Of a stretch of 39,202 nucleotides of DNA, positions 4,982 through 39,144 are shown in pieces; within the stretch, counting starts at the first letter, position 1; every line of letters starts with the position of its first letter. The DNA is from a candidate division WWE3 bacterium UBA1379 (lineage in GTDB: Bacteria > Patescibacteriota > WWE3 > UBA101185 > UBA10185): positions 1 to 39,202 of the forward strand of contig DBRB01000005.1 of the NCBI GenBank assembly GCA_002305475.1. Direction: 5' to 3'. The notes under the pieces were generated by a model. The model was not told the origin of the DNA and made no database searches. It saw only the letters and a list, made by a program, of their open reading frames with translations. A program made the translations under genes and the position numbers.

Positions 4982-5560
4982 GTGCCAAGGAAATATATTA
5001 TTAAAGTTTATAAACCTAATGCGTATTATCACATTTACAACAGAGGAGTTGAAAAAAGAGCAATATTCTTAACACCTGAAGATTACAAAAAATTTCTTCA
5101 TTTTCTGAAGGAATCAATAACGAGAACCGAAGTTTGCATGGTAAGCTACTGTTTGATGCATAACCACTATCACTTATTAGTATACCAACAAAATCCGCGC
5201 GACATCACAAAACTGATGAGATCTGTACGCACAAAATATTCTTCCAATTTTAACTATAAATATGATCGTGTCGGATGTCTCTTTCAAAGCAGTTACCGCG
5301 CGAGAATAATTAAATCCGAAGAAGATTTATTGGCTACTTCAGCCTATATTCACAACAACCCTTACAGGGATAAACCCGGGTCTATCCCTAAAAAATACCA
5401 GTACACCAGCCTGCCTGAATATTTAGGTACCAGAACAACAACATGGGTCAATACACAAAATATTATTTCCATTTTTAAGCAACATAATAGTGTTTTTTGG
5501 ATAAACGATTATCTGAAATACCACGAGGATAAAAGAAAAGAAAGGATGGATCTAGGTTGA
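4982..5560 (+). mobile_element. IS200/IS605-family (Y1 HUH) transposase, RAYT-like, with a GTG start
   Basis: 192 aa carrying the HUH motif region LMHNHYHLLVY and the downstream catalytic Tyr region SAYIHNNPYR, the architecture of Y1 transposases (Pfam Y1_Tnp). It lies between two tRNA genes. Confidence 0.7.
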
Positions 5561-6159: not shown

Positions 6160-6290
6160 GGTGCGTCAGGAATCAAGTTTATTTGCATTATTCAAACATA
6201 TTTATCATACATCTGTTGACATTTTGAAAACAAAGTGATAATTTGTCATCCTATAGTAACTGTGCTACACTCTGTCCTAGAAAGAAATAT

Positions 6291-7166
6291 ATGATTAGTT
6301 TAGAAACTGCGCGTAACAATTTTATAAAGCATCTGGAAAATCAAGGAAAATCCCATTCTACATTACTAGCATATGGAAAAGATATTGAACAACTTATATC
6401 TCACCTGGCTAAGAAGGGAGTAACTAATGTTAATGAAATTACCCTGGAGCATTTGGAAGATTTCATGAAAAAACTGGCTTCGGAGAGCTATACTAATAAA
6501 TCCATTTCCAGAAAAACCAACTCCACAAAGACTTTTTTTAGATTTCTGAAAGAAAAAGGACATATTGACACAAACGTTGCTGATTTATTAAAGCATCCTA
6601 AAGTCGATATCAAGGCTCCGAGAATTTTATCCAAATTAGAATACAGAGCATTGAGAGACGCAGCAAAAGAAGATCCTCGTACATCAGCCATTATCGAAGT
6701 ACTTCTGCAAACAGGAATTATGATTTCTGAACTGGCAGATATTAAGATGGAAGATCTTCACATGGATAAAGATTCTGGGACTCTTTTTATACCCGGAAAA
6801 CCGAATAAAGATTCCAGAACTATTCCTTTGAATAAAGCTGTTATCGAAGCTATAAGAAACTATATTGAAAAGGATCGTCCTAATGACAAGGATGCAAAGC
6901 ATCTATTTATCACAAAATCAGGAAAACCTCTTCTGATCAGAAATATAAGATCAACTATTGAAAGATACTATAAAGCAGCCGGTGTAGAAAATGCTAAGGT
7001 GAATGATTTGAGACATACATTTGTTGCATTTCATTTATCAAATGGAACAAACATTGTACAAGTTTCAAAGATAGCCGGTCATAAAAGAGTATCTACAACT
7101 GAAAGATATCTTCAATACATTGAAAGACCTTCCGGAGAAGAAAAAACGGAACTTGGTATTTTATAA
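6291..7166 (+). CDS. Tyrosine recombinase, XerC/XerD / phage-integrase family. The track ORF begins at TTG 6243; ATG 6291 (MISLETARNNF) is the more likely start.
   Basis: The N-terminal SAM-like domain and the C-terminal catalytic domain both match the family (TGIMISEL, IPGKPNKDSRT, NDLRHTFVAFHLSNG, GHKRVSTTERYL with the nucleophile Tyr). At the positions of conserved Arg-I and His-II the sequence has Met and Asn. A sigma70-like promoter sits upstream: TTGACA 6216-6221, TG-extended GATAAT 6236-6242. Confidence 0.8.
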   Translation: MISLETARNNFIKHLENQGKSHSTLLAYGKDIEQLISHLAKKGVTNVNEITLEHLEDFMKKLASESYTNKSISRKTNSTKTFFRFLKEKGHIDTNVADLLKHPKVDIKAPRILSKLEYRALRDAAKEDPRTSAIIEVLLQTGIMISELADIKMEDLHMDKDSGTLFIPGKPNKDSRTIPLNKAVIEAIRNYIEKDRPNDKDAKHLFITKSGKPLLIRNIRSTIERYYKAAGVENAKVNDLRHTFVAFHLSNGTNIVQVSKIAGHKRVSTTERYLQYIERPSGEEKTELGIL

Positions 7167-21290: not shown

Positions 21291-21884
21291 TTATTGATCG
21301 TTTTGGTAATATAAATGCAGTACCTTGTCTGCATACTGAAAACCTCGATCCATCGGACCGTATTTCTTTAATCCTTCTCGTTCACCATATTTCTTTATAA
21401 GATTCGCTAGAAACATCGTACCATAAGCAATATTTGTCTCCGGATCTTTAAGTGCCCTTACTGTCGGCCTGTCTTTAAACATATTTCCATATAGTTTTGC
21501 AGACAAACCGTCTGAAGCCATAATCTGCATCAAACCAACTGCACCGCTATGCGAAATTACAGTGGGTCTGCCACCGCTTTCTATAGTAATAACAGCGGCT
21601 ACTAGATCAGGATCCAAACCGTTAATCCTCGCGTGTTTAACAATCAGTTTTTCCCATTTCCTGACATTCCGAGGGTAATTTGGACTTATTCCACCAGTAA
21701 CTCCATCGGAAAAAGCACTGGCTTGAGCAACTTCACTAAAGAAATTAAAATCTATACCTGCATAATCCAAAAACAAGCCGCACGCTGACAACATAACAAT
21801 AGTTAATAACAGAGCCAAGCGAGGAACCTGTACCCATAGACGGGCGTAGGCACCAACCAGAAGAAAAGGAAGTTTTAATATCAT
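21291..21884 (-). CDS. Lytic transglycosylase (SLT domain, family 1)
   Basis: 197 aa. N-terminal TM/signal peptide; catalytic Glu in ITIESGG; AVGLMQIM motif; Y...AYN-like region. Confidence 0.85.
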   Translation of the reverse strand: MILKLPFLLVGAYARLWVQVPRLALLLTIVMLSACGLFLDYAGIDFNFFSEVAQASAFSDGVTGGISPNYPRNVRKWEKLIVKHARINGLDPDLVAAVITIESGGRPTVISHSGAVGLMQIMASDGLSAKLYGNMFKDRPTVRALKDPETNIAYGTMFLANLIKKYGEREGLKKYGPMDRGFQYADKVLHLYYQNDQ

Positions 21885-23201: not shown

Positions 23202-24902
23202 CTATTCGGTCAAACTTACCACATATACACGGCTTCCGTCCAATACATACAGATTCTTCTCATCATCTGTTACAGCTATACCCCTGATATCAGTCCATTT
23301 AGAGGTATCAGAATTCATATATTGTTTATATAGCTTTCCTTCTTTGTCCAGAACAACAATCCTGTTATTTCCCTTATCCGCAACATAAATATAGTCAAAG
23401 TCGTAATCAGTCAGAACCTGTACCGATGCAACAAATTCTTTATCAAGACCGCTGACACTAAATTCATCCTGCACACCTTGTGTGAACTTCAGCAGACTTC
23501 CGTCATTCTTCAGAATATAGATACTTCCATCAATACTGATAGAACGTCCTCCGTTTAAAACGGCATTCTGAGTCCATGTTGATGATGTGCCGTCAGAAGT
23601 GGTTTTCGTAATGGTATCTCCGCTTAAAGTATAAGTATTTCCAAGATAAACGGATGAAATAGTTCTATCTTTAAATTCATCATCTGACAAAACAAATTTC
23701 GGCGTATCCAATGATGAGGAATAGATTTTCTTCTGATCCGTATCTCCTACTAAAACATTTGAGGAAGATAATTCAATATATGAGGGGTTTACCGATGCAT
23801 CCGTGAGTTTAAGATCATAAAATACTTCCGAAGACACTCTGACCACAGTGGGATCATCAGGAGCCTGAGTCACCGCAGACGCTACCTCGGAAGGTTGTTC
23901 TTTTTCCTCTGGCTCGGTAAATACATCCATCACACTTCCCTCTGCCGTTTCAGATGTTTCAGTGCGGATCTTGTCCCTATTTATTTTAAGAGAATATAAA
24001 ACGGATACTAATAATAAAATTCCTGCAATGGTAGCTATGGTTGTAACTTTCTCTTTCTTGCTTTTTTCTTTATGCACTCTGATGTCAATGACCGATTCCC
24101 TTGGATTATTCAGACTACCGGAATCGGATACCGGATTTCTCTCTATCGAAGGGGTGGCTTTCATTTTTCTTTTGAATATCCCAAAAACTTTTGAAACCGG
24201 AAGTTTTATTCCGGGTTTTTTGTCCTCAGATCCATTCATCCCAAAATCCACCACCTCATCTTGAGAAAAACTGGTATCAACAATGATTTTCAGAAGCACA
24301 CATGATCCTTCCATAGGTAGACCTTCCGTGGAAAATGAGGTATTTAAAAGTTCTTCCGGAGGAATTTTTTCAATAAAAGGTTGAGTGGCAAAAATCAGAA
24401 CATCATCATTCTTCACTACACCGGAAGCGGCTGAATAATGACCTTCGCTGTTGGCACTGATTGCTCTTAAATCCCCATCCCGCATCAGATAACATCCTGT
24501 TTTTCCGTATGAAACCATATAAATAACATTTCCCCATAACACACCGCACAATATATTAAACTGGACCTGTTCAGAGGTCGGATGAAGTGATATGGATTCA
24601 TTAGTCAGCTTAGTCACCCGATCCCTTACATCAGCAATAGCTTTTTCTAAAGATTGAACTGGAGATATGTTTTCGGACTGATAATAGGATTCACGCAATA
24701 CATCACTTACTACCGTAGAAACTAGGTTGGTATCGAATTCTTCTGATCCGGAGATATCAAATACAGCATAAAGACTGCCCTTTTTCCCGCGTGTAGTTTC
24801 ATCATCAGGTTCAACGGTAATGGCATTGGAAAATCCTCTGGCGGATACCGGCAGATTTGGATAGATTTTTTGAACTTTGGCAGTAAGTTTTTTCAACATC
24901 AC
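23202..24902 (-). CDS. Membrane protein: cytoplasmic PP2C-like (possibly degenerate) domain, one TM helix, extracellular NHL-repeat region
   Basis: 566 aa. PPM-like stretches KKGSLYAVFDISGS and CGVLWGNVIYMVSYGKTGCYLMRDGDL, with metal-binding Asp replaced. TM helix VTTIATIAGILLLVSVLYSL. C-terminal NHL-like repeats (YIYVADKGNNRIVVLDKEGKLY; LYVLDGSRVYVVSL). Confidence 0.55.
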   Translation of the reverse strand: MMLKKLTAKVQKIYPNLPVSARGFSNAITVEPDDETTRGKKGSLYAVFDISGSEEFDTNLVSTVVSDVLRESYYQSENISPVQSLEKAIADVRDRVTKLTNESISLHPTSEQVQFNILCGVLWGNVIYMVSYGKTGCYLMRDGDLRAISANSEGHYSAASGVVKNDDVLIFATQPFIEKIPPEELLNTSFSTEGLPMEGSCVLLKIIVDTSFSQDEVVDFGMNGSEDKKPGIKLPVSKVFGIFKRKMKATPSIERNPVSDSGSLNNPRESVIDIRVHKEKSKKEKVTTIATIAGILLLVSVLYSLKINRDKIRTETSETAEGSVMDVFTEPEEKEQPSEVASAVTQAPDDPTVVRVSSEVFYDLKLTDASVNPSYIELSSSNVLVGDTDQKKIYSSSLDTPKFVLSDDEFKDRTISSVYLGNTYTLSGDTITKTTSDGTSSTWTQNAVLNGGRSISIDGSIYILKNDGSLLKFTQGVQDEFSVSGLDKEFVASVQVLTDYDFDYIYVADKGNNRIVVLDKEGKLYKQYMNSDTSKWTDIRGIAVTDDEKNLYVLDGSRVYVVSLTE

Positions 24903-26074: not shown

Positions 26075-27883
26075 TTATTTAGTTACAAAATCATATAGTT
26101 TATTTCTGATTGATATATACCCAGGTGCCCGTAAATTAAAGACGGTTTTAAATTCTGCTCCGTCAATTCCGATTCTTCCGCGATTAGTGTTAAAGTAAAC
26201 CTTTGATGTATACCCACCATTACTAATTTCTACATCTACATCCGAATCTACACTGGTAAATTTACTTCCGTAGTCATCTGCTTTATCCGCCATAGCGTCA
26301 ATTGAATAAGGGTTTCCTCCCCAACAACTGGTAGTAACAGGTGATATCCTGTCTTTTTCTTTTGAGGATCCCTTACGCCAGACAACCCAAGCATTAAGAA
26401 TATCCGCCATTTCTTTTTCTGTAAGCCATGGATTGGAACGTCCGCAAGTGGATGAATTTACATTATATGTCTGGGTATACCATGCTTTAAAAAACCAGGG
26501 CGATTTTGCTTTCTTTTCATACGCATCATTAGGCCAGCTTCCTTTAGTATCCCAGCCAATATTATTAATATATCCTCCGGTTGTAGAAGAGTAGTAGGCT
26601 ACAACACTGCTATCCAATATTTTCTTATCAGTATCATCAACTGCTTCTTTCCAACGGGATGGGGGATCCTCACTTTTGGATTTAAGAAACACCTGACAGG
26701 ACTGGGAAGTACAGATACATTTGCCGTTTTTCTTGTAGCGGTATGCATACGATCTGGCGGCTATAGCCTGAGCTTTCAAAGCATTTTCCGGCCAATCGGC
26801 TGGCATCTCCGCTAAACCATATAAATACTTCTTCATGCTCATCGTCCCATAACCCTCAACGCAAATCTCATCAGCATCATCTTCCTCTTTTACACCAGAT
26901 TTATAATAAAATTTAAGGATGTCCTTGTAATTCTGACCGGCTTCGGCACGTCCTTTTGCACCGTATTGACTCATACCATTACCGTGTGTATATGCTCCGT
27001 AACTGGAAGCGGCGAATGCTGGACGGAATCCAGGATCCGGTAGTTTTTGTTCCGCTGCTTCATAATTACCCACAGTACCGTTCCCCTCACCGTATTTCTG
27101 AGAAAGAATACTTTGCTGTTTTGCAGTCAGTTCACTGATAGCCTGTGATAAATCTTCTAGCTCTTCTTCAAGATCCTCCTGCTGACTGGAAAGAACATTT
27201 AATTCCTTCTCCTGGCTGGCTTTCTGTGAATCCAGCTGCTGTTTTAATACCAGCATCTTATTATGGGAATCTTCCAGTTCGCTTTTTAAACTTTCAGCTT
27301 CGTTTTTATCTTTTTCGAAATTTGTAATTTCCTTATTAATCGCTCCTATTAAACTGATCGTTTCAGAGGTTAAGGTTTTCTCAAAAATATATGAATAAGT
27401 AGAAAATTGGAAACCATTCAGATCTTCCTCGATTTTTTCACTTGTATTTACAAAAGGAACGGAAGATAAAAACAATTCCAGATCATTAAGTACTCCCCGC
27501 TTGCTGAAATTTCTGATAATTTTGTTTCTGATATCAATTTTTTCCGTCAGATCTTTCCGTCTGTTTTCCAGATTAGTATTTATTTCAGCCAGCTGTTCCT
27601 CCATGTTTTTAATATCCGCCTGAAGTTCATTAACCTGTGCCTGGGTAACATTCAACTGAGAGGACAAGTCAGCAATTTTTTTTGAGACACCGTCAGCTTT
27701 AGAACGAATTTCTGATAGTTTTTTTGATGTAGATTGATATTCTTCCTCTTTTTTCTCCAGTTTTTCTTCAATTTTCTTTAATTCGTCGTCGGTATCATCA
27801 GCCAGCATCACAAAACTCATAGCAGGTAGGAAAAATGTTATTGTTATTAGTACGAGTATGAGCAGTCTACGCATTGTGGACAT
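26075..27883 (-). CDS. SpoIID/LytB-domain protein with N-terminal signal anchor and long coiled-coil
   Basis: 602 aa. Coiled-coil over residues ~30-250. Then KKYLYGLAEMPADWPENALKAQAIAARSYAYRYKKNG...CTSQSCQVF, which matches the SpoIID/LytB amidase-enhancer domain signature. Confidence 0.7.
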   Translation of the reverse strand: MSTMRRLLILVLITITFFLPAMSFVMLADDTDDELKKIEEKLEKKEEEYQSTSKKLSEIRSKADGVSKKIADLSSQLNVTQAQVNELQADIKNMEEQLAEINTNLENRRKDLTEKIDIRNKIIRNFSKRGVLNDLELFLSSVPFVNTSEKIEEDLNGFQFSTYSYIFEKTLTSETISLIGAINKEITNFEKDKNEAESLKSELEDSHNKMLVLKQQLDSQKASQEKELNVLSSQQEDLEEELEDLSQAISELTAKQQSILSQKYGEGNGTVGNYEAAEQKLPDPGFRPAFAASSYGAYTHGNGMSQYGAKGRAEAGQNYKDILKFYYKSGVKEEDDADEICVEGYGTMSMKKYLYGLAEMPADWPENALKAQAIAARSYAYRYKKNGKCICTSQSCQVFLKSKSEDPPSRWKEAVDDTDKKILDSSVVAYYSSTTGGYINNIGWDTKGSWPNDAYEKKAKSPWFFKAWYTQTYNVNSSTCGRSNPWLTEKEMADILNAWVVWRKGSSKEKDRISPVTTSCWGGNPYSIDAMADKADDYGSKFTSVDSDVDVEISNGGYTSKVYFNTNRGRIGIDGAEFKTVFNLRAPGYISIRNKLYDFVTK

Positions 27884-27986
27884 AAATTAATTATAACATC
27901 TCATTGTTACAGGCAAATAAATTAAGAAAAGTTCCCACTTTCCGCAAATAAGTTGACTCTGCGGATAGTTAAGGACAATAATAGTG

Positions 27987-28516
27987 TAATGGTCCTTAAT
28001 AAAATAATTATTCCCTTAAAGTTTTGTAATTTTCTCTTTTGGGTATTAATTATTGTTTCACTTTATAACAAGCAAGCATATGCTGTTGAATATGCACCAT
28101 GTCAGCCTAATTCTTCCCACTGCACCTTAGTAGATGATCTAATCGGCTCACATTATGATTGTGCATGTGACGTATTTTGCGATCCCGGAGAAAAATGTGA
28201 AAAAAGAATGGGTATAGGTGCGAGTGGGTACTGGTGTCGGGAATCAAGCCTTTGTGTGGATCCAAATCCTGCTTATACAGACTGTACCTACGGGGAAATC
28301 GAAACATGCGGAAACAGTATATTGAACTCTTCCTGTGCAGATAATGAAAGATGTTTGTCACCTGCAAACACTGGCCCCGGCGGAAGCAGCAGACCTCAAT
28401 GTGTTCCTGATACTTCCTGTGTAAATGATCCAGGTGTCTGTGCAAATTTACCGGGGGCAGGTGCATATTGGCAACCTCTTGCACAGCAAACAATCCCCAA
28501 CAACTGGATTGTTTAA
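27987..28516 (+). CDS. N-terminal fragment of Cys-rich hairpin-anchored protein A (signal peptide plus Cys-rich region). The track ORF begins at TTG 27953; ATG 27987 gives a clean signal peptide.
   Basis: MVLNKIIIPLKFCNFLFWVLIIVSLYNKQAYA | VEYAPCQPNSSHC..., with 22 Cys in the mature part. It ends at TAA 28514-28516, while the downstream part of the same gene continues in another frame. Confidence 0.6.
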
Positions 28517-29460
28517 ACGGAACTGTATGCTGTACTTCTAATGAAAACGACTGCAATAGCATGGGTGGGATCTGTGACACCTCCTGTGGTGGCACGGGAG
28601 TTATACCCACCGGTATCTGCGGTCCAGGATCATTAGGCCAGTTATGTTGCAGACAAGAACCTGCTAAAGCCTGTGAAGTTTCGGTAGCTGCAGGAGGCCT
28701 TGGAGGTGAATGTGTAACAGCGGGTGCCTGTGGATCAGCACCCTTAACACCTGCTTCCGGATGTCTGTTTACCGAGGAATGCTGTCCTACTTCATCTACC
28801 CAAACATGCGAGGATGCGGGGGGTGTTGTTGTAAGACACGCAGGATGTGATACCCCTATAGAAGGTGTCGTTACACCTATTGGAGCATTATGCTGCAATC
28901 CCACTACCCTTCCAAAATGTAATGAAATACCTGGAGGTGGGTTTTGTACGTTTTTGCATTGTGATGTTACTCCGGTTGCTTCTTCGGATTGTGCGGCACC
29001 TAACATCTGTTGTCCAAACACACAGCGATTCTGTGAGGTTGGTAATGCGGGGGGACAACCATCATTCGGAGGTGTATGCAACGGGACACCTTGTACTACC
29101 GTTACACAAGCAAGAGAATGCTCCGTGTGTTGTCTTAATTCAGATGCGATACCTCCTCCTGACGGAAATGATGATGATCCCAGAGGTCCTACTTACACAT
29201 CCGAATACACAGGTCCAAAAATTACAGTTAATCAGCTAATAGGACTAATATACGATATAATGCTTCCAATAAGCATTGGGGTAGGATTGTTATTTATCAT
29301 AAAAGCAGGTTATGTTTTAAAAACTTCTGAAGGTAATCCTACTAAAAAACAGCAAGGTATTGATGATTTAACCGGCGCGGTGGTAGGTACATTATTTGTT
29401 GGTCTATCCTTAGTAATTTTGAGAGTAATCATTAATTCTATTTTGGGTGGCAATATTTAA
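28468..29460 (+). CDS. C-terminal fragment of Cys-rich protein A: Cys-repeat ectodomain plus the conserved C-terminal two-helix hydrophobic hairpin
   Basis: This frame is open from 28429, with no signal peptide of its own. Its Cys-rich repeats match the architecture of the intact paralog B. The last ~90 aa are near-identical to the C-terminus of B and homologous to the three small downstream proteins. Confidence 0.6.
   Translation: MATSCTANNPQQLDCLNGTVCCTSNENDCNSMGGICDTSCGGTGVIPTGICGPGSLGQLCCRQEPAKACEVSVAAGGLGGECVTAGACGSAPLTPASGCLFTEECCPTSSTQTCEDAGGVVVRHAGCDTPIEGVVTPIGALCCNPTTLPKCNEIPGGGFCTFLHCDVTPVASSDCAAPNICCPNTQRFCEVGNAGGQPSFGGVCNGTPCTTVTQARECSVCCLNSDAIPPPDGNDDDPRGPTYTSEYTGPKITVNQLIGLIYDIMLPISIGVGLLFIIKAGYVLKTSEGNPTKKQQGIDDLTGAVVGTLFVGLSLVILRVIINSILGGNI
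29245..29402 (+). repeat. 158-bp block perfectly identical to 30750..30907 (3' hairpin-module coding region shared by genes A and B). The surrounding ~260 bp are ~85-90% identical.
   Basis: Direct comparison of the two gene 3' ends. The block from CTAATATACGATATAATGC through ACATTATTTGTTGG is identical base for base. Confidence 0.85.
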
Positions 29461-29608
29461 TTATCTCTCATTTTTTAACTCAATCATAGTGGATCCGAAT
29501 AGTTACAGCGAACCATCTTCTTAAATAGATATCAACGCATCATATATACTTGACTATCAATTTGTTTACCCGTCATAATCCTATTACAAAAGTTTCTAGC
29601 AACATTAT

Positions 29609-30968
29609 TATGAAAAATATTAATAAAATTTTATTATTCTTCCTGTTTCTTTTTGTCGGCTTTCTTTTTTATACCGGTAAAGTATACGCAGACTGGTGTA
29701 CGGAACCTAGATATGCTGCTTTAGGAGCTCGATGTGTGTCTATGGCAGGATCTACGGAATTTAGATGTCCGGACGGTTTTAGCACTTATCCAGATCCTAA
29801 TGTAGTTTGCCCGGTTGATGGGGTTGAAATCTGCTGTGTACCAAACACCAGGATGTGTTTAAACAATAGTAGCAACAGCTGCCATAATACATCCTGCCCT
29901 GCAGGCTATGTTCCATCACAACCAGGTAATTTATTATGTCCGATTAACGGTCAGGTTTGTTGTACACCACAGCAAGCTCCAAACCCAGAGCAATGTCCTA
30001 CAGGTAATGGAGTATGTCTACCTAATTGTAATGTAACAGGATACACAAATGATCCGCAAAGAAGATCCTGCACAATTAACAATACAGAGTGTTGTATTAG
30101 AACAAATACCGGAAGTTGTCCGGCACCCCCAAATGGATTTTGTTTTAGCGGTACTTGCAGTGGAGGAACCGTACCGGATCCTCAAAACAGATTATGTTCT
30201 ACACCAGGAAATGTATGTTGTCTTCCAGCGAGTACTTCAACACAATGTCCGGCTTCTCCTGAAGGTTATTGTTTTTCAGGTGCATGTGCCGGGGGGACAG
30301 TACCGGATCCACAGGGAAGACAATGCTCAACCAGTGGACAAACCTGCTGTGTACCAGATCCAAGCGATGCCTGTCCTGCACCTCCAGACGGGTTTTGTTA
30401 CGATGGATTATGTCCGGGCGGTTTGATGCTGGATAGTAGATCATGTCCTAATGCAAGTCAGAATTGCTGTGTGGAGGAAGAAATTGTTATTCCTCCTACA
30501 GAATGTACCCCTAACGCAACAGTATGTGATATACAAATTGTAAATGGGGTAGTAGTTAGTGCGTGGTGCCCCTGCGGTGAATCTGGCTGCGGTACAAATA
30601 CCAGATGTGTAAAAGGAGTCGGAGATACATTCTTTTGCCAAAACGATACGATTGCTTGTATAGCTGAAGACGACCCGTTAGACCCAGATGATTCAACGTA
30701 CGAATCAGAATACACAGGACCGATAATCACAGTAAATGAGCTGATTTCTCTAATATACGATATAATGCTTCCAATAAGCATTGGGGTAGGATTGTTATTT
30801 ATCATAAAAGCAGGTTATGTTTTAAAAACTTCTGAAGGTAATCCTACTAAAAAACAGCAAGGTATTGATGATTTAACCGGCGCGGTGGTAGGTACATTAT
30901 TTGTTGGATTGTCATTAGTGATTTTAAGAATTATAATTAATTCAATCTTAGGTGGTAACATAACTTAA
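29609..30968 (+). CDS. Cys-rich secreted protein B: signal peptide, ~38-aa six-Cys tandem repeats, C-terminal VirB2/TrbC-like two-helix hairpin. ATG 29609 is the likely start; the track TTG 29550 lies inside the promoter.
   Basis: Signal peptide MKNINKILLFFLFLFVGFLFYTGKVYA | DW. About 60 Cys in repeats of the form CPAPPxGFCFSGxCxGGTVPDPQxRxCSTxGxxCC(V/L)P. C-terminus ...IYDIMLPISIGVGLLFIIKAGYVLKTSEGNPTKKQQGIDDLTGAVVGTLFVGLSLVILRIIINSILGGNIT. Promoter TTGACT(29550-29555)-N17-TCATAAT. Confidence 0.75.
30117..30476 (+). repeat. Three tandem ~126-129-bp coding repeats, each a ~38-aa six-Cys unit, within gene B
   Basis: The units start at 30117, 30246 and 30372. Each encodes CP(A)(P/S)PxG(F/Y)C(F/Y)xGxCxGG...(R)xC...CC(L/V)(P/E). 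Confidence 0.75.
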
Positions 30969-31013: not shown

Positions 31014-31376
31014 ATGAACTTACAATTAATACAGGATGTTTATGCAGGACCTGGTGTAGGTACAACAGTATCCAGCTCATTAACAACTGACTTCACTGAT
31101 ATCGGTGACCTGGCTGGTTTTGTAATCAATATTATTCTTGGTATAGGTTGGGCTTTAACCTTTATCATGCTTGCCGGTGGTTTTATCAGATACATCACAT
31201 CAAGAGGTGAAACCAAGGCTACGGATTCTGCACGAAACTGGCTGACATATGCCGCTTTAGGAGGGGTTGGTTTGTTCTTCTTAACTGTTATTAAAAATAT
31301 AATACTGTCACTATTAACTGGTAATACAAGCAGACCTCAGGAAATTGACGAACAATTTGACCCGTTTGCCAACTAA
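31014..31376 (+). CDS. Small two-helix hairpin protein P1 (VirB2/TrbC-pilin-like topology), candidate major subunit
   Basis: 120 aa. Hydrophobic helix (FVINIILGIGWALTFIMLAGGFIRYI), loop TSRGETKATDSARNW, second helix. Homologous to the C-termini of A and B. Strong SD AAAGGAGGTG 13 nt upstream, and a hairpin terminator downstream. Confidence 0.7.
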   Translation: MNLQLIQDVYAGPGVGTTVSSSLTTDFTDIGDLAGFVINIILGIGWALTFIMLAGGFIRYITSRGETKATDSARNWLTYAALGGVGLFFLTVIKNIILSLLTGNTSRPQEIDEQFDPFAN

Positions 31377-31430: not shown

Positions 31431-31488
31431 GTATGACCTTGCTTCACAAATAATTGCTTTATACAAACGTCTTGCCATATAATACCTA

Positions 31489-31795
31489 TATGTTTGACTA
31501 CATCCCTTTCTCACAAGATCCAAGCGGAGGAAATGTAACGACTATCGGAGATGTGTTAGGTATGTCAATAAATATCATGATGGGAATTGTTTTTGCTTTG
31601 GGTTTTATATCGCTAGCAGCGGGGTTTGTTATATTTGTTACCAGCAGAGGAAATCCTGATGGTACTGCACGTGCAGGAAAAGCCGTATTATACGGTGCAG
31701 GTGCAGTGGCACTATCTCTGCTCGTCCTTGTAATTAAAGAAATTATCTTCAAGGCAATAGGTGTTGAAGGTGTAGACACCGTGCCGGCTATTTAG
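31489..31795 (+). CDS. Small two-helix hairpin protein P2, paralog of P1. The track ORF begins at TTG 31454; ATG 31489 is likelier.
   Basis: MFDYIPFSQDPSGGNVTTIGDVLGMSINIMMGIVFALGFISLAAGFVIFVTSRGNPDGTARAGKAVLYGAGAVALSLLVLVIKEIIF..., collinear with P1 and with the A/B C-termini. A TATAAT-like box lies ~6 nt upstream of the ATG, suggesting a possible leaderless transcript. Confidence 0.65.
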
Positions 31796-31804
31796 AATAA
31801 ATAT

Positions 31805-32233
31805 ATGTTAAAGGTATTAAGATCAGTATTAATATTTACTCTATTAATAACAGCTTTCAATGTGTTTTCAGAACCTGCATATGCCGTAAACTGCACCCCT
31901 CTTTCGGATGAAGCACCCGGACCACAGGATATAATCTGCCCTGTTATAAGAATTGTGAATATCGCTTTGCTTTCTTCCGGAGCGGTATTAATTCTGATGC
32001 TTTTATGGGGCGGTGTTAAATTAGCGCTGGCAATCGGAGATCCAAAAGCCATGCAGGCTGCATCAGCAACATGGACTTGGGCTATCATAGGATTTGCTGT
32101 AGTAATCGGCGGTGCTACTTTATTGAAAATAGTAGCGGGCTGGTTCGGATGGGAAGCAGACTTTCTTAATCCCTTTGATACACTTCAACAAAAAATACAG
32201 GAATTTATGTCGCTTTTGCATATTGAAGGTTAA
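31805..32233 (+). CDS. VirB2/TrbC-like pilin-type protein P3 (signal peptide plus two hydrophobic helices)
   Basis: 142 aa. Signal peptide MLKVLRSVLIFTLLITAFNVFSEPAYA | VNC. Mature part with two Cys, helix 1 AVLILMLLWGGVKLALAIGDPK, loop, helix 2 WAIIGFAVVIGGATLLKIVAGWFGW. This layout resembles Agrobacterium VirB2. Confidence 0.65.
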   Translation: MLKVLRSVLIFTLLITAFNVFSEPAYAVNCTPLSDEAPGPQDIICPVIRIVNIALLSSGAVLILMLLWGGVKLALAIGDPKAMQAASATWTWAIIGFAVVIGGATLLKIVAGWFGWEADFLNPFDTLQQKIQEFMSLLHIEG

Positions 32234-33537: not shown

Positions 33538-36500
33538 CTATGGACGACATGCCTCATTCCAAATTTCTCCCATTGCACGCCAATCAGTAAAACATGCAAG
33601 TGCACCAGAAGACCATCTTGATATTAAATCAACAACGCTTACACCTGCAACATCATGACTGTTTTGAAAGTTTCCGGTCTGGCTTCCTGCAAAGTGAGTA
33701 TGAGGGTGTGTACCTAAAGTATGACAACTTCCAGAACAATCAGAATGACCAAGTGTTGTTCCCGCTGCAACAGGTATACACCCCTCTGGCGATGGTCTGC
33801 CCGTAATTGTTGTATCCATCATATGAGTAAAGTATAAAGAAGGGCAAGGAGATGTAATTTCATCATTCCAGTCTCCAGAAGGATCCGTGGGATATAAATA
33901 AACAGAAACACCGCCTGTAGGATCCATTTCAGGAAAGGCACACCCGTCAAACGGAGCTACCACAGGCTGACCCTCGCATTGGTATACATCTGAGATACCT
34001 TCCGTACTACTATGGGTGCAACTATAACCTAATAATCCAGGGAACGGATTTCTACCCGGACAATTTGTACCATCACCAAATCTACCTCGTGGAGGAGCAG
34101 ATCCGGAACCGGGAGGTACAACAACCGGTAGTTCATCTCCTACACATTCACCGGAAACACATTGAAGAGAACAACATATAGAAGAATCTGAACAGGATTC
34201 CCCGGTATGTCGGCAGTCTGCTCTTGGCATACCAGCCATTTGATATCCAGTACTACTTCTTGTTGTGTCTATAGGTGGGAAGGTGATAAGAGATGAACCG
34301 AAAAACATAAAGGAGATAATCATGATAATAAAAAAAGGAAAAGCTGTTATATATAAAATCATCTTAACACCAGTGGTCACGAGTTTATCCAAGTCTTTAA
34401 AGAATGTGGAGAGCTCCCCTTTAAATATAGCCTTGAGAAATGCTTCTGTTTTATTGATAACCAGATTTGTTACAAACTTTACAACCGGAGTAATTACTTT
34501 ATCTATTATCGGGGCAAGTACAGAACCAGCACCTGAAGTACTTCCAGCAAGTAATGCCAGAAGAGCTGTTCTAATAGCTCTCGCCACTGCAGTAGATATT
34601 GCATCTTTAACCTGAAACAAAGGAGCGACATATTTACCTATTCTCTTAAAAACTTCTGTCTGAATCTGATTTGCCAAGGATGATAATTTCTGCAGATGAC
34701 CAACCCGATCCCAAGTAATATTTATATAATCAGTGCTTCTTATCCTTTTTCCTAAACCCTGCATCAATTCCGTTAATATTCTTCCATTTTCAGCTGTGTT
34801 TTCAAGATAGTTCCCATTAAAAGACAAACCCAACCTTTGCTGATTTTCTTTAAGCCATCTCAAGAATTTTTCGTTATTTTCGACCAAATCCGTGAATTCC
34901 TTTTCGCCAACCTTCAACCCTTTAACAACCGATATATCTCCGTTGAGAAAGCGGATCATTGAATTACCGCTATCATTAAAACCGACGAGAGCGCCGGTAT
35001 TCTTATCCAACACTGCATTCAAACGGCCTAAAGTTTTGTTTGCAGCATCGTGATCCGATAAAATTCCATGTAGAGTAACCGCACCCTTAAAATGTTTACC
35101 GCCAGCTACCTTCACTCTACCCACCCCCGAGATATCTACAGAAAAGGTGTTTCTCGCTGTAAATGCTTTTGTGCTTGAACCGGCAAAATCCGGATCATAC
35201 ACTAAACCTAAGTAATGTGATCTTTGTAATGTGGCTTTAACTGCCTGAGAAGGATACAAACCGTCAAGATAGGGTCTGATTTTTCCTTGCCATACATAAA
35301 CTTTAAACAGCCTTCCCTTTTCAATATTTGATAAAAAGTCCGCAAAGTCATTCTTCTCATACATAGGGTTGGCTGCCATCAGAAGCCTTCGAACATTTTC
35401 TATGCCGGAATACTGATCAACCTGGGAATTAGTATGTGAGGCTGTTTTTGTAAAGACATCGCGTAGGGTATCCCCACTATTTGGGGTAAACATACTACCA
35501 CCCTGCATCAAATATCTACCGGTAGTCTTATTCAGCAAATCGTGTTGAATGCCCTTTATGGCACCGGGTTGCGTTATACTACTTGCCAAAGTATCAAGAC
35601 GACCTTTTAGTACACCGGCCGATAGTATGCCTACCGAGCCTGAAGACTGTGCCTCTACAGCCAGATTATGAATATCTTCAACTTTCCTTCTAAATGAACT
35701 CATTACCAGGTTGTAATTCTGTTTCTGAATAGGATTAAGGTTTGCAGGTATTACTGTATCAATATCATTAAGCGCATCGCTGGCAACTTTTTGCAAGGTC
35801 TTCATTGAATTCTGAATGGTCAACCCCGCTTTTTCCCCGCCGACTACAATTTTTCCTAGGTTTTCCTGAACACCAAAAATACCTTCTTTTTTAGTAAAAT
35901 TACTTATTCTTTGTACGGCTTTTGTACCGGCAAGAAAATCCTCTATAGCAGCAATTTCATCAACTGATAAACCGGTTACATTATTTCGGAAATTTTCTAC
36001 TTCAGTAGCAACGGCATCCAAAGCACTTAAACGAAGTTCGTTATAATCCCTGTTTCTGGACGAAGTGGCCTCAACACCAACGGTAAATTTCAGGAAAGAT
36101 TGACCAACTTTGGAATAGACATCTGTGGGTATTTTCTCCTTAACAATATCGTAAGTACCGGGGGAAGTTTCCCTTACCATGTTAACTTCAGTGTCTCCCG
36201 GTTTCATCACCCTCAAACCCTGCATCTGATAAGGATTTGGTTCCGTGGTAGGTGTAATACCTAATGTATGTTTGGCATACTCTTCTGCAGGCCTGAAAAA
36301 AGGAGACTGACCTTCCGGTGCTAAATTATCCCGCCCCGCTAAAACAGGCTCCCAGAAATACTTCTGTTCAATGTAGTTTCTGAAGTCTTTCCAGTCAAAA
36401 GTGGATTTAACCCATTGTTCTATAGTTGATTTAAATTGTCCTTCGGGATCTTTTGACCAATCCCCCGGATTGATAGATACCTGAAGCTGAACGCCGGGAG

Positions 36501-36774
36501 TATCATCAATATCCCCGAATTCTAAAGCCCTCTGGGGATCATATGACTGATAACCGGCTTTTTTAGGGGTAGCTGATAATTTAAACTGGGTTTTTATATC
36601 CTCAATAACCGCGTTCTTTACTGCTGCAGGCAATTTTCCAAAGTCAATATCCTTAAATACATTCTCAATCCAGTTTGCTAATACATCAAAGGTATATTCC
36701 TCCGGAGGAGGAACTGCACCTTTTCTGGGCGGTCGGGGTATGGGTTGTCCGGGATAATATCCAACGCGCGGCAT
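33538..36774 (-). CDS. Giant membrane protein (1078 aa): large N-terminal domain of unknown function, TM segment(s), C-terminal Cys-rich ectodomain with a knottin-like six-Cys framework and M23/LytM-like motifs
   Basis: No signal peptide and no P-loop. Hydrophobic segment KMILYITAFPFFIIMIISFMFFGSSLI. It is followed by CRHTGESCSDSSICCSLQCVSGEC (C-x6-C-x5-CC-x3-C-x4-C), then FTHMMD (HxxxD), then CHTLGTHPHTHF (HxH). Confidence 0.6.
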   Translation of the reverse strand: MPRVGYYPGQPIPRPPRKGAVPPPEEYTFDVLANWIENVFKDIDFGKLPAAVKNAVIEDIKTQFKLSATPKKAGYQSYDPQRALEFGDIDDTPGVQLQVSINPGDWSKDPEGQFKSTIEQWVKSTFDWKDFRNYIEQKYFWEPVLAGRDNLAPEGQSPFFRPAEEYAKHTLGITPTTEPNPYQMQGLRVMKPGDTEVNMVRETSPGTYDIVKEKIPTDVYSKVGQSFLKFTVGVEATSSRNRDYNELRLSALDAVATEVENFRNNVTGLSVDEIAAIEDFLAGTKAVQRISNFTKKEGIFGVQENLGKIVVGGEKAGLTIQNSMKTLQKVASDALNDIDTVIPANLNPIQKQNYNLVMSSFRRKVEDIHNLAVEAQSSGSVGILSAGVLKGRLDTLASSITQPGAIKGIQHDLLNKTTGRYLMQGGSMFTPNSGDTLRDVFTKTASHTNSQVDQYSGIENVRRLLMAANPMYEKNDFADFLSNIEKGRLFKVYVWQGKIRPYLDGLYPSQAVKATLQRSHYLGLVYDPDFAGSSTKAFTARNTFSVDISGVGRVKVAGGKHFKGAVTLHGILSDHDAANKTLGRLNAVLDKNTGALVGFNDSGNSMIRFLNGDISVVKGLKVGEKEFTDLVENNEKFLRWLKENQQRLGLSFNGNYLENTAENGRILTELMQGLGKRIRSTDYINITWDRVGHLQKLSSLANQIQTEVFKRIGKYVAPLFQVKDAISTAVARAIRTALLALLAGSTSGAGSVLAPIIDKVITPVVKFVTNLVINKTEAFLKAIFKGELSTFFKDLDKLVTTGVKMILYITAFPFFIIMIISFMFFGSSLITFPPIDTTRSSTGYQMAGMPRADCRHTGESCSDSSICCSLQCVSGECVGDELPVVVPPGSGSAPPRGRFGDGTNCPGRNPFPGLLGYSCTHSSTEGISDVYQCEGQPVVAPFDGCAFPEMDPTGGVSVYLYPTDPSGDWNDEITSPCPSLYFTHMMDTTITGRPSPEGCIPVAAGTTLGHSDCSGSCHTLGTHPHTHFAGSQTGNFQNSHDVAGVSVVDLISRWSSGALACFTDWRAMGEIWNEACRP

Positions 36775-36855: not shown

Positions 36856-38193
36856 ATGAGGATGTTATCATTTTCCAGATTATTCAAGGTTTTTATCGTT
36901 GTCTCTTCTATTCTTTTTTACCTTGGTGCAACTACTGACAGAGCATTGGCTCAAGGAGATGGGGTTTCGGGAGTGATTTATGCTGACGGAGAAGAAAAAC
37001 TTTATGAAAACATCCAACTTTTCGTACCTGGATTAGATATCAGAAGAACAGCATTAAACCATTTAGCTGCTGCTGCTTTTGATGGAATACCCTTTATAGC
37101 TTTCGGAAAAAACATCAGTGAAATGCAGGGATGCGGTGCAAAATTTTTGCAGGATAACGGTGCGGATGTAACCTGCCAGGGTTGTGCACAGAATCTGGAA
37201 TGCGAAGATCTTCAATTGCTGTATAAACCGGGTTCCCAGTTTGCTCAGACAAGAGTAGCGGGCACTTTAATCGGTTTATCTAATTTTCTGGGTGGGGCCG
37301 CTATCAATGAACCGGCACCGGTAAATTTGGCTTACTGGTGGAATGACAATGTTAACAAAGTACCTTTTGTCGGTCATGCTCTTGCAGCAGATTCAACTAC
37401 CTATAGCGGACCATTTTTAGGGGCCATTTTATTTGTCTGGAAATTAACCAGAAATATCGCTTACGGATTGATGTCGGTTGTAATGTTGGCCACCGGATTA
37501 ATGATTATAACCAGAAAGAAACTAGGACCACAGGCAGCAGTAACTGCTCAGCTTGCTCTTCCAAAAATAATTATTGCTCTGGTATTGATAACATTCAGTT
37601 ACCCCATCGGGGCTCTTGGAGTATCTTTAGCATATGTTCTGAGAGGGAACGTCGGGCCGATGTTAGCAGATGTGGATTGGGGAGGATTAGGCAATAATGT
37701 ATTAACAGCAACAGATGGTTTTTCTGTTGGATTTATCGCCTCAGCTCTCTTTGCTGTTGTTACCGCAATCATGGGTCTAGGTCCTGTAATACTGATAATC
37801 TCCTTACTGGTGATCTTTGTTGCAATCGTAGCAGGTATTCTCGTATATATTAAATTTTTCACCATCTACATTAAACTGCTATTTTCTATTATCGCCGCTC
37901 CTTTCATATTCACAATCGGAGCAATTCCCGGTCAGGATCAGGCAACAATAAACTGGTTTAAAAGTTTTATCGCTAACGTGATAGCAATACCAGCTATGTT
38001 TTTTATATACACATTATCTTTCCTTTTATCCTGGAAAATTATGTTAACGGCATTTACTGAAGCAACCGTGTTCGGTGGTGGTCCACTTATGCTCTTCATA
38101 GTCCCCTTCGTATATATATACGGTGCATTCTTTGCCAGACAGGTTCCGGATAAAATCGAAGCACTGATAGTAGGTGAAAAGAAGAGAAAATAA
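36856..38193 (+). CDS. Polytopic membrane protein with VirB6/TrbL-like topology (signal peptide, ~150-aa extracytoplasmic domain, 6 or more TM helices)
   Basis: 445 aa. Signal peptide MRMLSFSRLFKVFIVVSSILFYLGATTDRALA. Soluble Cys-containing domain (CGAKFLQDNGADVTCQGCAQNLEC). Then a densely hydrophobic C-terminal two-thirds. Transcribed divergently from the 1078-aa gene. Confidence 0.55.
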   Translation: MRMLSFSRLFKVFIVVSSILFYLGATTDRALAQGDGVSGVIYADGEEKLYENIQLFVPGLDIRRTALNHLAAAAFDGIPFIAFGKNISEMQGCGAKFLQDNGADVTCQGCAQNLECEDLQLLYKPGSQFAQTRVAGTLIGLSNFLGGAAINEPAPVNLAYWWNDNVNKVPFVGHALAADSTTYSGPFLGAILFVWKLTRNIAYGLMSVVMLATGLMIITRKKLGPQAAVTAQLALPKIIIALVLITFSYPIGALGVSLAYVLRGNVGPMLADVDWGGLGNNVLTATDGFSVGFIASALFAVVTAIMGLGPVILIISLLVIFVAIVAGILVYIKFFTIYIKLLFSIIAAPFIFTIGAIPGQDQATINWFKSFIANVIAIPAMFFIYTLSFLLSWKIMLTAFTEATVFGGGPLMLFIVPFVYIYGAFFARQVPDKIEALIVGEKKRK

Positions 38194-38267: not shown

Positions 38268-38726
38268 ATGTTATTGGCAAAAAACCGTAAAGCTTTTTAC
38301 GATCATGAAATATTGGAAAAATTTACTGCGGGCATAGCTTTAAAAGGCTATGAAGTCAAAGCAGTGAAAGAAGGTAAGGTGAACATGGACGGTTCATTTG
38401 TACAGGTATTGGGTCATGAGGTTTATGTAATCAATATGTATATCGGACAATATTCCAAACAAAGCCAGGAAACAGGGAAACAACAGTCTAGAACAAGCAG
38501 AAAGCTGCTTCTTAGAAAAGAAGAAATTGAAAAACTGCAAAGAGAACTGGCACAGAAAGGAAAAACCGCAATTCCTCTTGCGTTGATCTTATCCCATAAT
38601 ATGATAAAATTGGAGTTCGGAATAGCAAAAGGACGTAAAAAGGTTGAGAAAAAGCACCTTGAAAAAGAAAGACAGATCAAGCGTGATCTGGAAAAAGCTG
38701 TCAAAGAAACACATAAGTATTATTAA
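38268..38726 (+). CDS. smpB: SsrA-binding protein SmpB
   Basis: 152 aa. NRKAFYDHEILEKFTAGIALKGYEVKAVKEG...GKTAIPLALILSHNMIKLEFGIAKGRKK and a basic C-terminal tail. Confidence 0.9.
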   Translation: MLLAKNRKAFYDHEILEKFTAGIALKGYEVKAVKEGKVNMDGSFVQVLGHEVYVINMYIGQYSKQSQETGKQQSRTSRKLLLRKEEIEKLQRELAQKGKTAIPLALILSHNMIKLEFGIAKGRKKVEKKHLEKERQIKRDLEKAVKETHKYY

Positions 38727-38740
38727 TAACGAGTATTTAT

Positions 38741-39144
38741 GGGGATGTAATGGCTTTGACTGAAAGACGCTATCTATGAAAGCAGGCCGAAGTCCTATAT
38801 CTTCGTTAAAAGATAGGAAAAAACAAATGCTGAAAACAAATTAGCATTCGTCGAAGAACCGGCATTAGTCGGTGCATTCGCTTAATCCCGTTAGAGGATT
38901 AGATCCTTTTATTTCTGTCCGGAGTAATAAACAGGGTCATATAAAACCGGAATGAGGTAGTTTAGAAATGGTCTTTTTAAACCGCCAAGGACTCAGAGTT
39001 CATAAGATGCTTAATGTATTAGACCTGCCGAGGATTCTATGGTTAGTCAAATACCTAACCTCTTAAGAAAAATTTGACTGAGCTTGGGAATACTTTTGTA
39101 TTTAGCCTTTCAACACAGGGGTTCGATTCCCCTCATCTCCACCA
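38741..39144 (+). ncRNA. ssrA: tmRNA (ssrA)
   Basis: Starts GGGGATG and ends ...GGGGTTCGATTCCCCTCATCTCCACCA, giving a tRNA-like acceptor/T-arm with CCA and a G3:U70 Ala-identity pair. Internal tag ORF GCTGAAAACAAATTAGCATTCGTCGAAGAACCGGCATTAGTCGGTGCATTCGCTTAA (AENKLAFVEEPALVGAFA*). Sits immediately downstream of smpB. Confidence 0.85.

Follow-up and report, generated by a model that had tools for sequence, protein, structure and literature searches.

A cysteine-rich pilin with predicted beta-defensin-like modules, encoded in a VirB2-like pilin array of a candidate division WWE3 bacterium

Arrays of two to 11 divergent VirB2-like pilin genes are common in the Patescibacteria (PMC12102498). In the single Patescibacterium that has been studied by genetic means, epibiotic growth depends on the type IV secretion system (T4SS) and its pilin array, the role of which has nevertheless been called completely unknown (PMC10633639, PMC11665869); essentiality of the array has been reported for Southlakia epibionticum (PMC10633639). 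A pilus has been put forward for the Patescibacteria T4SS only as a possibility (PMC12857230). According to a 2024 survey, trans-defensins occur in vertebrates and in a number of invertebrates, and reports of bacterial defensins are limited to the cis type (PMC11561630). The present analysis concerns a 39,202-nucleotide stretch of DNA (the window; contig DBRB01000005.1 of assembly GCA_002305475.1, forward strand) from the candidate division WWE3 bacterium UBA1379, and in particular a cysteine-rich pilin gene, gene B (29610..30968), and its paralog A (27989..29460), which belong to an array of five pilin-domain genes located between positions 27989 and 32233, all on the + strand. The protein encoded by gene B is read here, with moderate confidence, as a Sec-exported pilin in which an ectodomain of six predicted beta-defensin-like modules is joined to a VirB2-like hairpin, and which probably serves in variable display at the site of host contact.

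The reading frame of gene B, as taken from the list of open reading frames (ORFs) and their translations, is open from a TTG codon at 29550 to the stop codon at 30966-30968 (472 codons). The ATG at 29610 is the probable start, where an earlier reading made from the sequence alone (the sequence-only reading) had placed it at 29609, and gives a protein of 452 amino acids, the gene being supported by the ORF, a PF18895 match and phmmer relatives. Residues 1-27 (29610..29690) make up a signal peptide, MKNINKILLFFLFLFVGFLFYTGKVYA, recognised from the sequence and from an N-terminal helix in the structural model, with a putative cleavage site. It is followed by six cysteine-rich units, here given with the number of residues between their successive cysteines: R1 (residues 29-78; 29694..29843; gaps 11,10,13,7,0), a loose copy, R2 (79-120; 29844..29969; 7,4,13,6,0), R3 (121-164; 29970..30101; 6,3,13,6,0), R4 (165-206; 30102..30227; 7,4,12,6,0), R5 (207-249; 30228..30356; 7,4,12,6,0), which was used for modelling, and R6 (250-289; 30357..30476; 7,4,10,6,0). 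Each unit is closed by one of the doublets of adjacent cysteines (CC) at residues 75, 117, 161, 203, 246 and 286. A linker, a distinct eight-cysteine module delimited by its cysteine positions (C299 to C350, core CPCGESGCGTNTRC) and an acidic linker occupy 30477..30698 and lead into the pilin domain (residues 364-452; 30699..30965). The ectodomain comprises 335 residues. Of the 44 cysteines of the protein, for which approximately 60 had first been counted, the six units account for 36 and the C-terminal module for eight. The stretch with the eight-cysteine module is the part of the ectodomain aligned by most relatives, with many phmmer alignments beginning at about residue 321, and a CxC...C...C module resembling it is also located at the N-terminus of paralog A.

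The C-terminal 90 residues of protein B score 24.7 bits against PF18895 (T4SS_pilin), for which the cut-off is 26.6, and paralog A scores 24.8 bits. Two of the three small downstream genes also match this family, namely those coding for a short pilin of 120 amino acids (31014..31376; weak match) and one of 142 amino acids (31805..32233; 30.3 bits, above the cut-off), while the pilin-like product of 113 amino acids encoded between them (31454..31795) has a weak match to the NCBIfam Mbov_0395 pilin-like conjugal transfer family. An exhaustive phmmer search recovered 781 relatives of protein B at E<1e-3, nearly all matched via the pilin domain, with named relatives including "pilin [Patescibacteria group bacterium]" and a protein of a WWE3 bacterium, and a precomputed PF18895 match is present in 52 of the 58 proteins retrieved with a profile of the pilin domain. 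In the AlphaFold2 model, two hydrophobic helices (residues 375-407 and 412-447; predicted local distance difference test (pLDDT) 63-77 per 10-residue block) form a hairpin joined by a short lysine-rich loop, KTSEGNPTKKQQG, as is characteristic of PF18895 pilins. The SEGxP motif (SEGNP in the loop of protein B) is invariant and YxGP (here YTGP, ahead of the first helix) invariant or near-invariant in an alignment of 40 diverse relatives (A1). Scans with a second profile (A3) yielded two loci in genomes and 17 in metagenomes, mostly coding for short, cysteine-free pilins. Related loci derive from metagenome-assembled genomes of Saccharibacteria and Minisyncoccia. The sequence-only reading had missed both the VirB2-like pilin domain and the position of the gene in a pilin array.

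The locus shares with the described Patescibacteria T4SS arrays (PF18895; Quinonero-Coronel 2025, PMC12102498; Wang 2023, PMC10633639) the two-helix domain with its SEGNP loop, the tandem arrangement of divergent pilin genes and a chromosomal context of the Patescibacteria type; the remainder of the contig is ordinary chromosome, coding for FtsH, the tryptophanyl- and leucyl-tRNA synthetases, the Suf system, ribosomal protein L25, SmpB, transfer-messenger RNA (tmRNA) and tRNAs. It differs from them in that the described pilins are treated as small, whereas A and B bear disulfide-rich N-terminal extensions of 335-370 amino acids, and in that virB4 is not adjacent. Furthermore, the pilin domains of A and B are 91% identical at the protein level, as opposed to a reported within-array maximum of 54% for Patescibacteria arrays.

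Paralog A is likewise a cysteine-rich pilin and is encoded in two overlapping ORFs (27953-28516 and 28468-29460), separated by a frameshift at a run of five G residues at 28453-28457. Addition of one G to this run joins the halves into an ORF of 490 amino acids with 49 cysteines, in which the restored junction is a canonical unit, C-x7-C-x5-C-x9-C-x5-CC. The frameshift could derive from an assembly error, from decay to a pseudogene or from slipped-strand switching. As had been supposed, paralog A follows the same CC-terminated logic as protein B in a divergent sequence. One of its units has only four cysteines, with a spacing of 12,14, as if C2 and C4, partners in the disulfide connectivity of beta-defensins (C1-C5, C2-C4, C3-C6), had been lost together; such cases are few, with five four-cysteine segments in the family in all. 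The pilin-coding 3' ends of the two genes (29191-29456 in A and 30696-30961 in B, approximately 270 nucleotides) are 89% identical, with at least 100 nucleotides matching perfectly, and upstream of them DNA identity drops abruptly to the random level (~50%), suggesting a recent gene conversion of the anchor alone. The ectodomains show no significant similarity, and the combination of near-identical pilin ends with dissimilar ectodomains supports a role in display or recognition. On the sequence evidence, A and B appear to pair a conserved assembly domain with interchangeable, fast-diverging outer modules. The public product for gene B (P0001) is a protein of 180 amino acids beginning at Met273 (30426-30968), that for paralog A (P0002) is the 330-amino acid second half (28468-29460), and the full ectodomains of both are missing from the protein collections searched. 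As the public gene calls shorten both proteins, protein databases may contain fewer such ectodomains than actually exist.

The sequence-only reading described the ectodomain of protein B as a secreted, disulfide-dense array of six-cysteine tandem repeats, and this description stands, given the signal peptide, the six CC-terminated units and the downstream membrane hairpin. Its three best copies run from a first cysteine at nucleotide 30117 to an end at 30476, exactly as claimed, and the more degenerate copies R1-R3 do extend back to the signal peptide. The repeat length of approximately 38 amino acids applies to the core motif, while the period is 40-44 amino acids. In R2-R6 the successive cysteines are separated by 6-7, 3-4, 10-13, 6 and 0 residues, giving the framework C-x7-C-x4-C-x10-13-C-x6-CC. 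The periodicity exceeds chance, with a BLOSUM62 autocorrelation peak at a lag of 43 residues (z 7.0; top z among 1000 shuffles 4.5), and extends to the non-cysteine residues, which scored alone with the cysteines held fixed give a z of 5.7 (shuffle maximum 4.8). At the protein level R5 shares 65% identity with R4 and 47% with R6. The DNA of R4 and R5 is 60% identical, with different codons at 14 of the 26 identical residues, and Tandem Repeats Finder (TRF) detected no DNA-level tandem repeat in the window; the duplication is therefore old and has been maintained at the protein level.

Similar units are widespread among the relatives of protein B. Among the matches listed, 72 of the 85 relatives of at least 200 amino acids contain at least 5% cysteine. 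Extraction backwards from every CC doublet of four further cysteines with B-like spacing yielded 78 units, distributed over 40 of the 191 relatives included in the scan, compared to 4.8 expected from shuffled ectodomains. Of the segments that separate one CC doublet from the next, those with six cysteines are by far the most frequent (74, the next most frequent count being represented by 18). The six cysteines alone are invariant in the alignment of the 78 units, where mean column identity is 21%; the scaffold of the unit appears fixed and its loops free to vary. An ectodomain-only query of an index of 5.8 billion proteins gave nothing at E<=1e-3, and a full-length word-index search returned paralog A and one other protein only. 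A hidden Markov model (HMM) built from the repeats of protein B recovered only protein B itself among 150 relatives, the loops being too divergent for it to reach the others, and an HMM search for units with lost cysteines returned complete units only. Searches for closer strain variants of protein B gave no exact gene record and no close metagenome relative. In a near-identical strain (L003; SRR5321211), the contig stops shortly after entering the pilin domain of gene B, probably through an assembly break at the 3' sequence repeated between A and B.

The cleanest example of the unit-plus-pilin architecture is P0008 (L009 / L004), a protein of 290 amino acids with a signal peptide, four near-identical 41-residue units (gaps 7,5,11,6,0) and a pilin domain. 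It aligns across the repeats with residues 170-451 of protein B (38% identity by phmmer), and TRF found no DNA-level tandem repeat in its locus (L009). A syntenic locus is present in GCA_012798115.1 and several Logan assemblies, with genes, in this order, for leucyl-tRNA synthetase, L25, a protein of ~600 amino acids, one of 187 amino acids, a SpoIID-like protein, the cysteine-rich pilin P0099 (265 amino acids) and three short pilin-like proteins, of which two have weak PF18895 matches. The SpoIID-like proteins of the two syntenic loci are 55% identical. Module content differs between the orthologues, with six units in the 452 amino acids of protein B and three CC-terminated segments, including one canonical six-cysteine unit, in P0099.

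The cysteine spacing of the units is that of the beta-defensins. The cysteine gaps of human beta-defensins 1-3 are 6,4,9,6,0, and R2-R6 conform to the beta-defensin six-cysteine framework (C-x6-C-x4-C-x9-C-x6-CC) with a third loop that is one to four residues longer; a glycine before C2 is conserved in both the unit and the beta-defensin consensus. When the 78 units were compared to 24,736 Pfam models, Defensin_beta was the family matched by most units. The first unit of P0099 scores 23.8 bits against PF00711 (curated cut-off 21), covering profile positions 2-36 of 36, and a unit of P0147 scores 11.8 bits. Beta-defensins account for five of the six PDB sequence matches of the P0099 unit, all of them weak (E 0.16-1). 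In the PDB, the unit profile best matches the N-domain of a tick carboxypeptidase inhibitor, which has the defensin fold (E 0.019), and alignment of this profile by hhalign to 11 beta-defensins gave an E-value of 5e-4 and a probability of 31%; the six cysteines are aligned in both cases. Unit R5, modelled with AlphaFold2 on the 78-unit alignment, has a mean pLDDT of 88.6, with four of the five models above 80, and is predicted to form a small antiparallel beta-sheet like that of solved beta-defensins, while a single-sequence model of the whole of protein B gives an ectodomain pLDDT of 30-49 per 10-residue block. Foldseek returned nine matches to the R5 model, all to the sea anemone peptide Ueq 12-1 or to human beta- or alpha-defensins, with E-values of 0.7-9, none significant.

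The resemblance to granulin or EGF-like domains raised by the sequence-only reading was not borne out. Granulin, with ~57 residues, 12 cysteines and four CC doublets, contrasts with a unit of ~42 residues and one CC per six cysteines, located C-terminally as in the beta-defensin framework; it gave no fold match and is absent from the Pfam scans of the 78 units. The 1-3, 2-4, 5-6 pairing and spacing of EGF-like domains are not supported for the units either. The nearest described proteins themselves differ from protein B. Animal beta-defensins (PF00711, trans-defensin superfamily) are free cationic peptides, whereas the units are bacterial, anionic tandem modules with a longer third loop, linked within a membrane-anchored protein, and do not have the character of free cationic antimicrobial peptides. 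Avian beta-defensin 11 and the tick carboxypeptidase inhibitor are soluble two-domain animal proteins, unlike protein B with its six units, additional module and attached pilin anchor, and the sea anemone tau-AnmTx Ueq 12-1 (PDB 5lah) is a free, toxin-like peptide of 45 amino acids with 10 cysteines and no sequence relation beyond the cysteines.

In the VirB2-like display pilin proposed here, the signal peptide would export the N-terminus to the outside, the first pilin helix would halt transfer and anchor the chain, the lysine-rich SEGNP loop would be kept in the cytoplasm according to the positive-inside rule, and the second helix would return to the outside. The N-terminus also ends on the outside in the topology of VirB2 and TraA. 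Each module of ~42 residues would fold as a small beta-defensin-like domain with three disulfides. For the disulfide-forming machinery (DsbA or VKOR-like), which the sequence-only reading had suggested looking for, no Dsb-, VKOR- or thioredoxin-like gene was found among the ORFs of at least 100 amino acids scanned on the 39-kb contig. Protein B would then either stay in the membrane or enter a pilus of the three neighbouring short pilins as a minor or tip subunit; the latter is favoured, with a location solely at the cell surface nearly as likely. From the membrane or the filament surface it would show a protease-resistant rod of rigid beads, in which fixed cysteines and freely varying loops could provide strain-specific binding to the surface of the host cell. 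The ectodomain probably offers the host cell a robust and variable surface for contact, and the rigid stalk or adhesin suggested from the sequence alone is still its most plausible function. Membrane attack of the defensin type is unlikely, and killing of this kind is not expected as the modules are anionic.

Several observations speak against the proposal of a defensin-like display pilin. The PF18895 score of protein B lies just below the cut-off, the 39-kb contig showed no virB4, virB3, virB8 or virD4 and no other recognisable T4SS gene, and no solved structure of VirB2 or TraA was recovered with the profile of the pilin domain. The units of protein B itself gave nothing against PF00711 at E<=10, and their link to Defensin_beta appears to be transitive, via the relatives. 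The 78 units have a mean net charge of -2.7, with 82% at or below -1 and 1% at or above +2 (those of protein B range from -4 to +1), and are thus anionic, unlike the cationic beta-defensins. The R5 model may have been steered by the cysteine framework alone. No pilus has yet been observed for these systems, and packing a filament would be difficult if each subunit bore an ectodomain of 335 residues.

The last of these points also bears on the alternative that survives best, in which the same module array never enters a filament and the hairpin is simply a two-helix anchor for a stalk or adhesin at the cell surface. The ectodomain is four times the size of the pilin domain, so that dense helical packing looks difficult; no virB4 was found on the contig, and no pili of these systems have been observed, PMC12857230 naming them only as a possibility. 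The C-terminal domain is, however, conserved beyond the needs of an anchor, as reflected in the SEGxP and YxGP motifs of the 40 diverse relatives and in the near-identity of the pilin domains of A and B, and the gene always adjoins short pilins. A plain anchor is rated as a possible explanation, with less than even confidence.

A second alternative would leave the pilin as it is and dispense with the defensin relationship: the units may be a convergent or unrelated small disulfide scaffold, with the beta-defensin-like model arising as an artefact of cysteine spacing. The low hhalign probability, the Foldseek E-values and the restriction of invariance in the unit alignment to the cysteines are all in keeping with this, as are single weak Pfam matches of units to other cysteine-rich families (thionin, knottin toxins, EGF). 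Such a scaffold is considered rather unlikely.

It is improbable that the modules are bioactive defensin-like effectors, acting as toxins, antimicrobials or protease inhibitors that would reach the host cell by delivery or release. Toxins and inhibitors do make use of the defensin fold, it is a carboxypeptidase inhibitor domain that the unit profile matches best in the PDB, one unit weakly matches Pfam Inhibitor_I68 and the epibiont T4SS is believed to exert its effect on the host (PMC11665869). Nevertheless, the units are predominantly anionic and without obvious processing sites between them, their loops are hypervariable rather than conserved like an active site, and a covalent linkage joins the array to a hairpin in the membrane. 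Finally, that the cysteine-rich upstream part is non-coding and the true product only the 180-residue C-terminal part is very hard to credit, since, although the sole public protein for gene B begins at Met273 and no obvious Shine-Dalgarno sequence precedes the ATG at 29610, there are 472 open codons and a canonical signal peptide, the in-frame 42-residue periodicity extends to the non-cysteine residues, the repeats have accumulated synonymous changes while conserving their protein sequence, and relatives such as P0008 align across the repeats and bear the same units.

The genes surrounding the pilin array include two for cell-wall enzymes. Immediately upstream, 26075-27883 (-) codes for a cell-wall enzyme of 602 amino acids with a coiled coil and a SpoIID/LytB domain, which is syntenic in the relative, and an SLT lytic transglycosylase, also a cell-wall enzyme, is encoded beside the array at 21291-21884 (-). 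The protein of 566 amino acids encoded at 23202-24902 (-) has no Pfam match, with weak matches to NHL/beta-propeller repeats at its C-terminus, and the syntenic locus has a gene for 615 amino acids at this position. Downstream, 33538-36774 (-) encodes a protein of 1078 amino acids with a membrane segment, a cysteine-rich C-terminal part and no family match; it contains CRHTGESCSDSSICCSLQCVSGEC, with the knottin-like framework C-x6-C-x5-CC-x3-C-x4-C, and has a syntenic counterpart of 1197 amino acids in L005/L006. The adjacent gene (36856-38193, +) codes for a protein of 445 amino acids with a signal peptide, many transmembrane helices and no Pfam or NCBIfam match, which may be VirB6-like; a counterpart of 451 amino acids is encoded beside the syntenic pilin array, and a variant of 443 amino acids in a Logan assembly is at least 90% identical. 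At 38268-39144, smpB is followed directly by the tmRNA gene (38741-39144), with the tag AENKLAFVEEPALVGAFA. Further upstream, two tRNA-Met genes, a tRNA-Ile(TAT) gene, an IS200-like Y1 transposase (4982-5560) and a XerC-like integrase (6243-7166) are localised between 4784 and 8375, which may represent a small mobile or rearranged region.

Full-text searches of a limited library found no published account of cysteine-rich pilin or T4SS ectodomains in the Patescibacteria or Candidate Phyla Radiation, no description of beta-defensin-like domains in bacteria and no link of such domains to bacterial pilins, and the Patescibacteria T4SS paper makes no mention of cysteine-rich or extended pilins. 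While VirB2-like pilin arrays are already known, a VirB2-like pilin bearing an undescribed array of defensin-like modules appears to be new. A bolder reading, which is put forward tentatively and with less than even confidence, is that the modules are true trans-defensin domains, the first in bacteria, and that they constitute a large, unannotated and hypervariable display family on Patescibacteria T4SS pilins at the site of host contact. As trans-defensins are held to be restricted to animals (PMC11561630), the widespread occurrence in bacteria of a module with the framework and the predicted fold of beta-defensins bears on the origin of the fold. Should it be homologous to the animal beta-defensins, the origin of the superfamily would need to be rethought, while convergence would mean that the same scaffold was reinvented for surface recognition. 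For the Patescibacteria themselves, the component that makes contact with the host and recognises it may naturally be sought in pilins whose ectodomains are large, hypervariable and locked by disulfides, and host specificity could be tested by means of antibodies, binding assays and swaps of modules between the paralogs.

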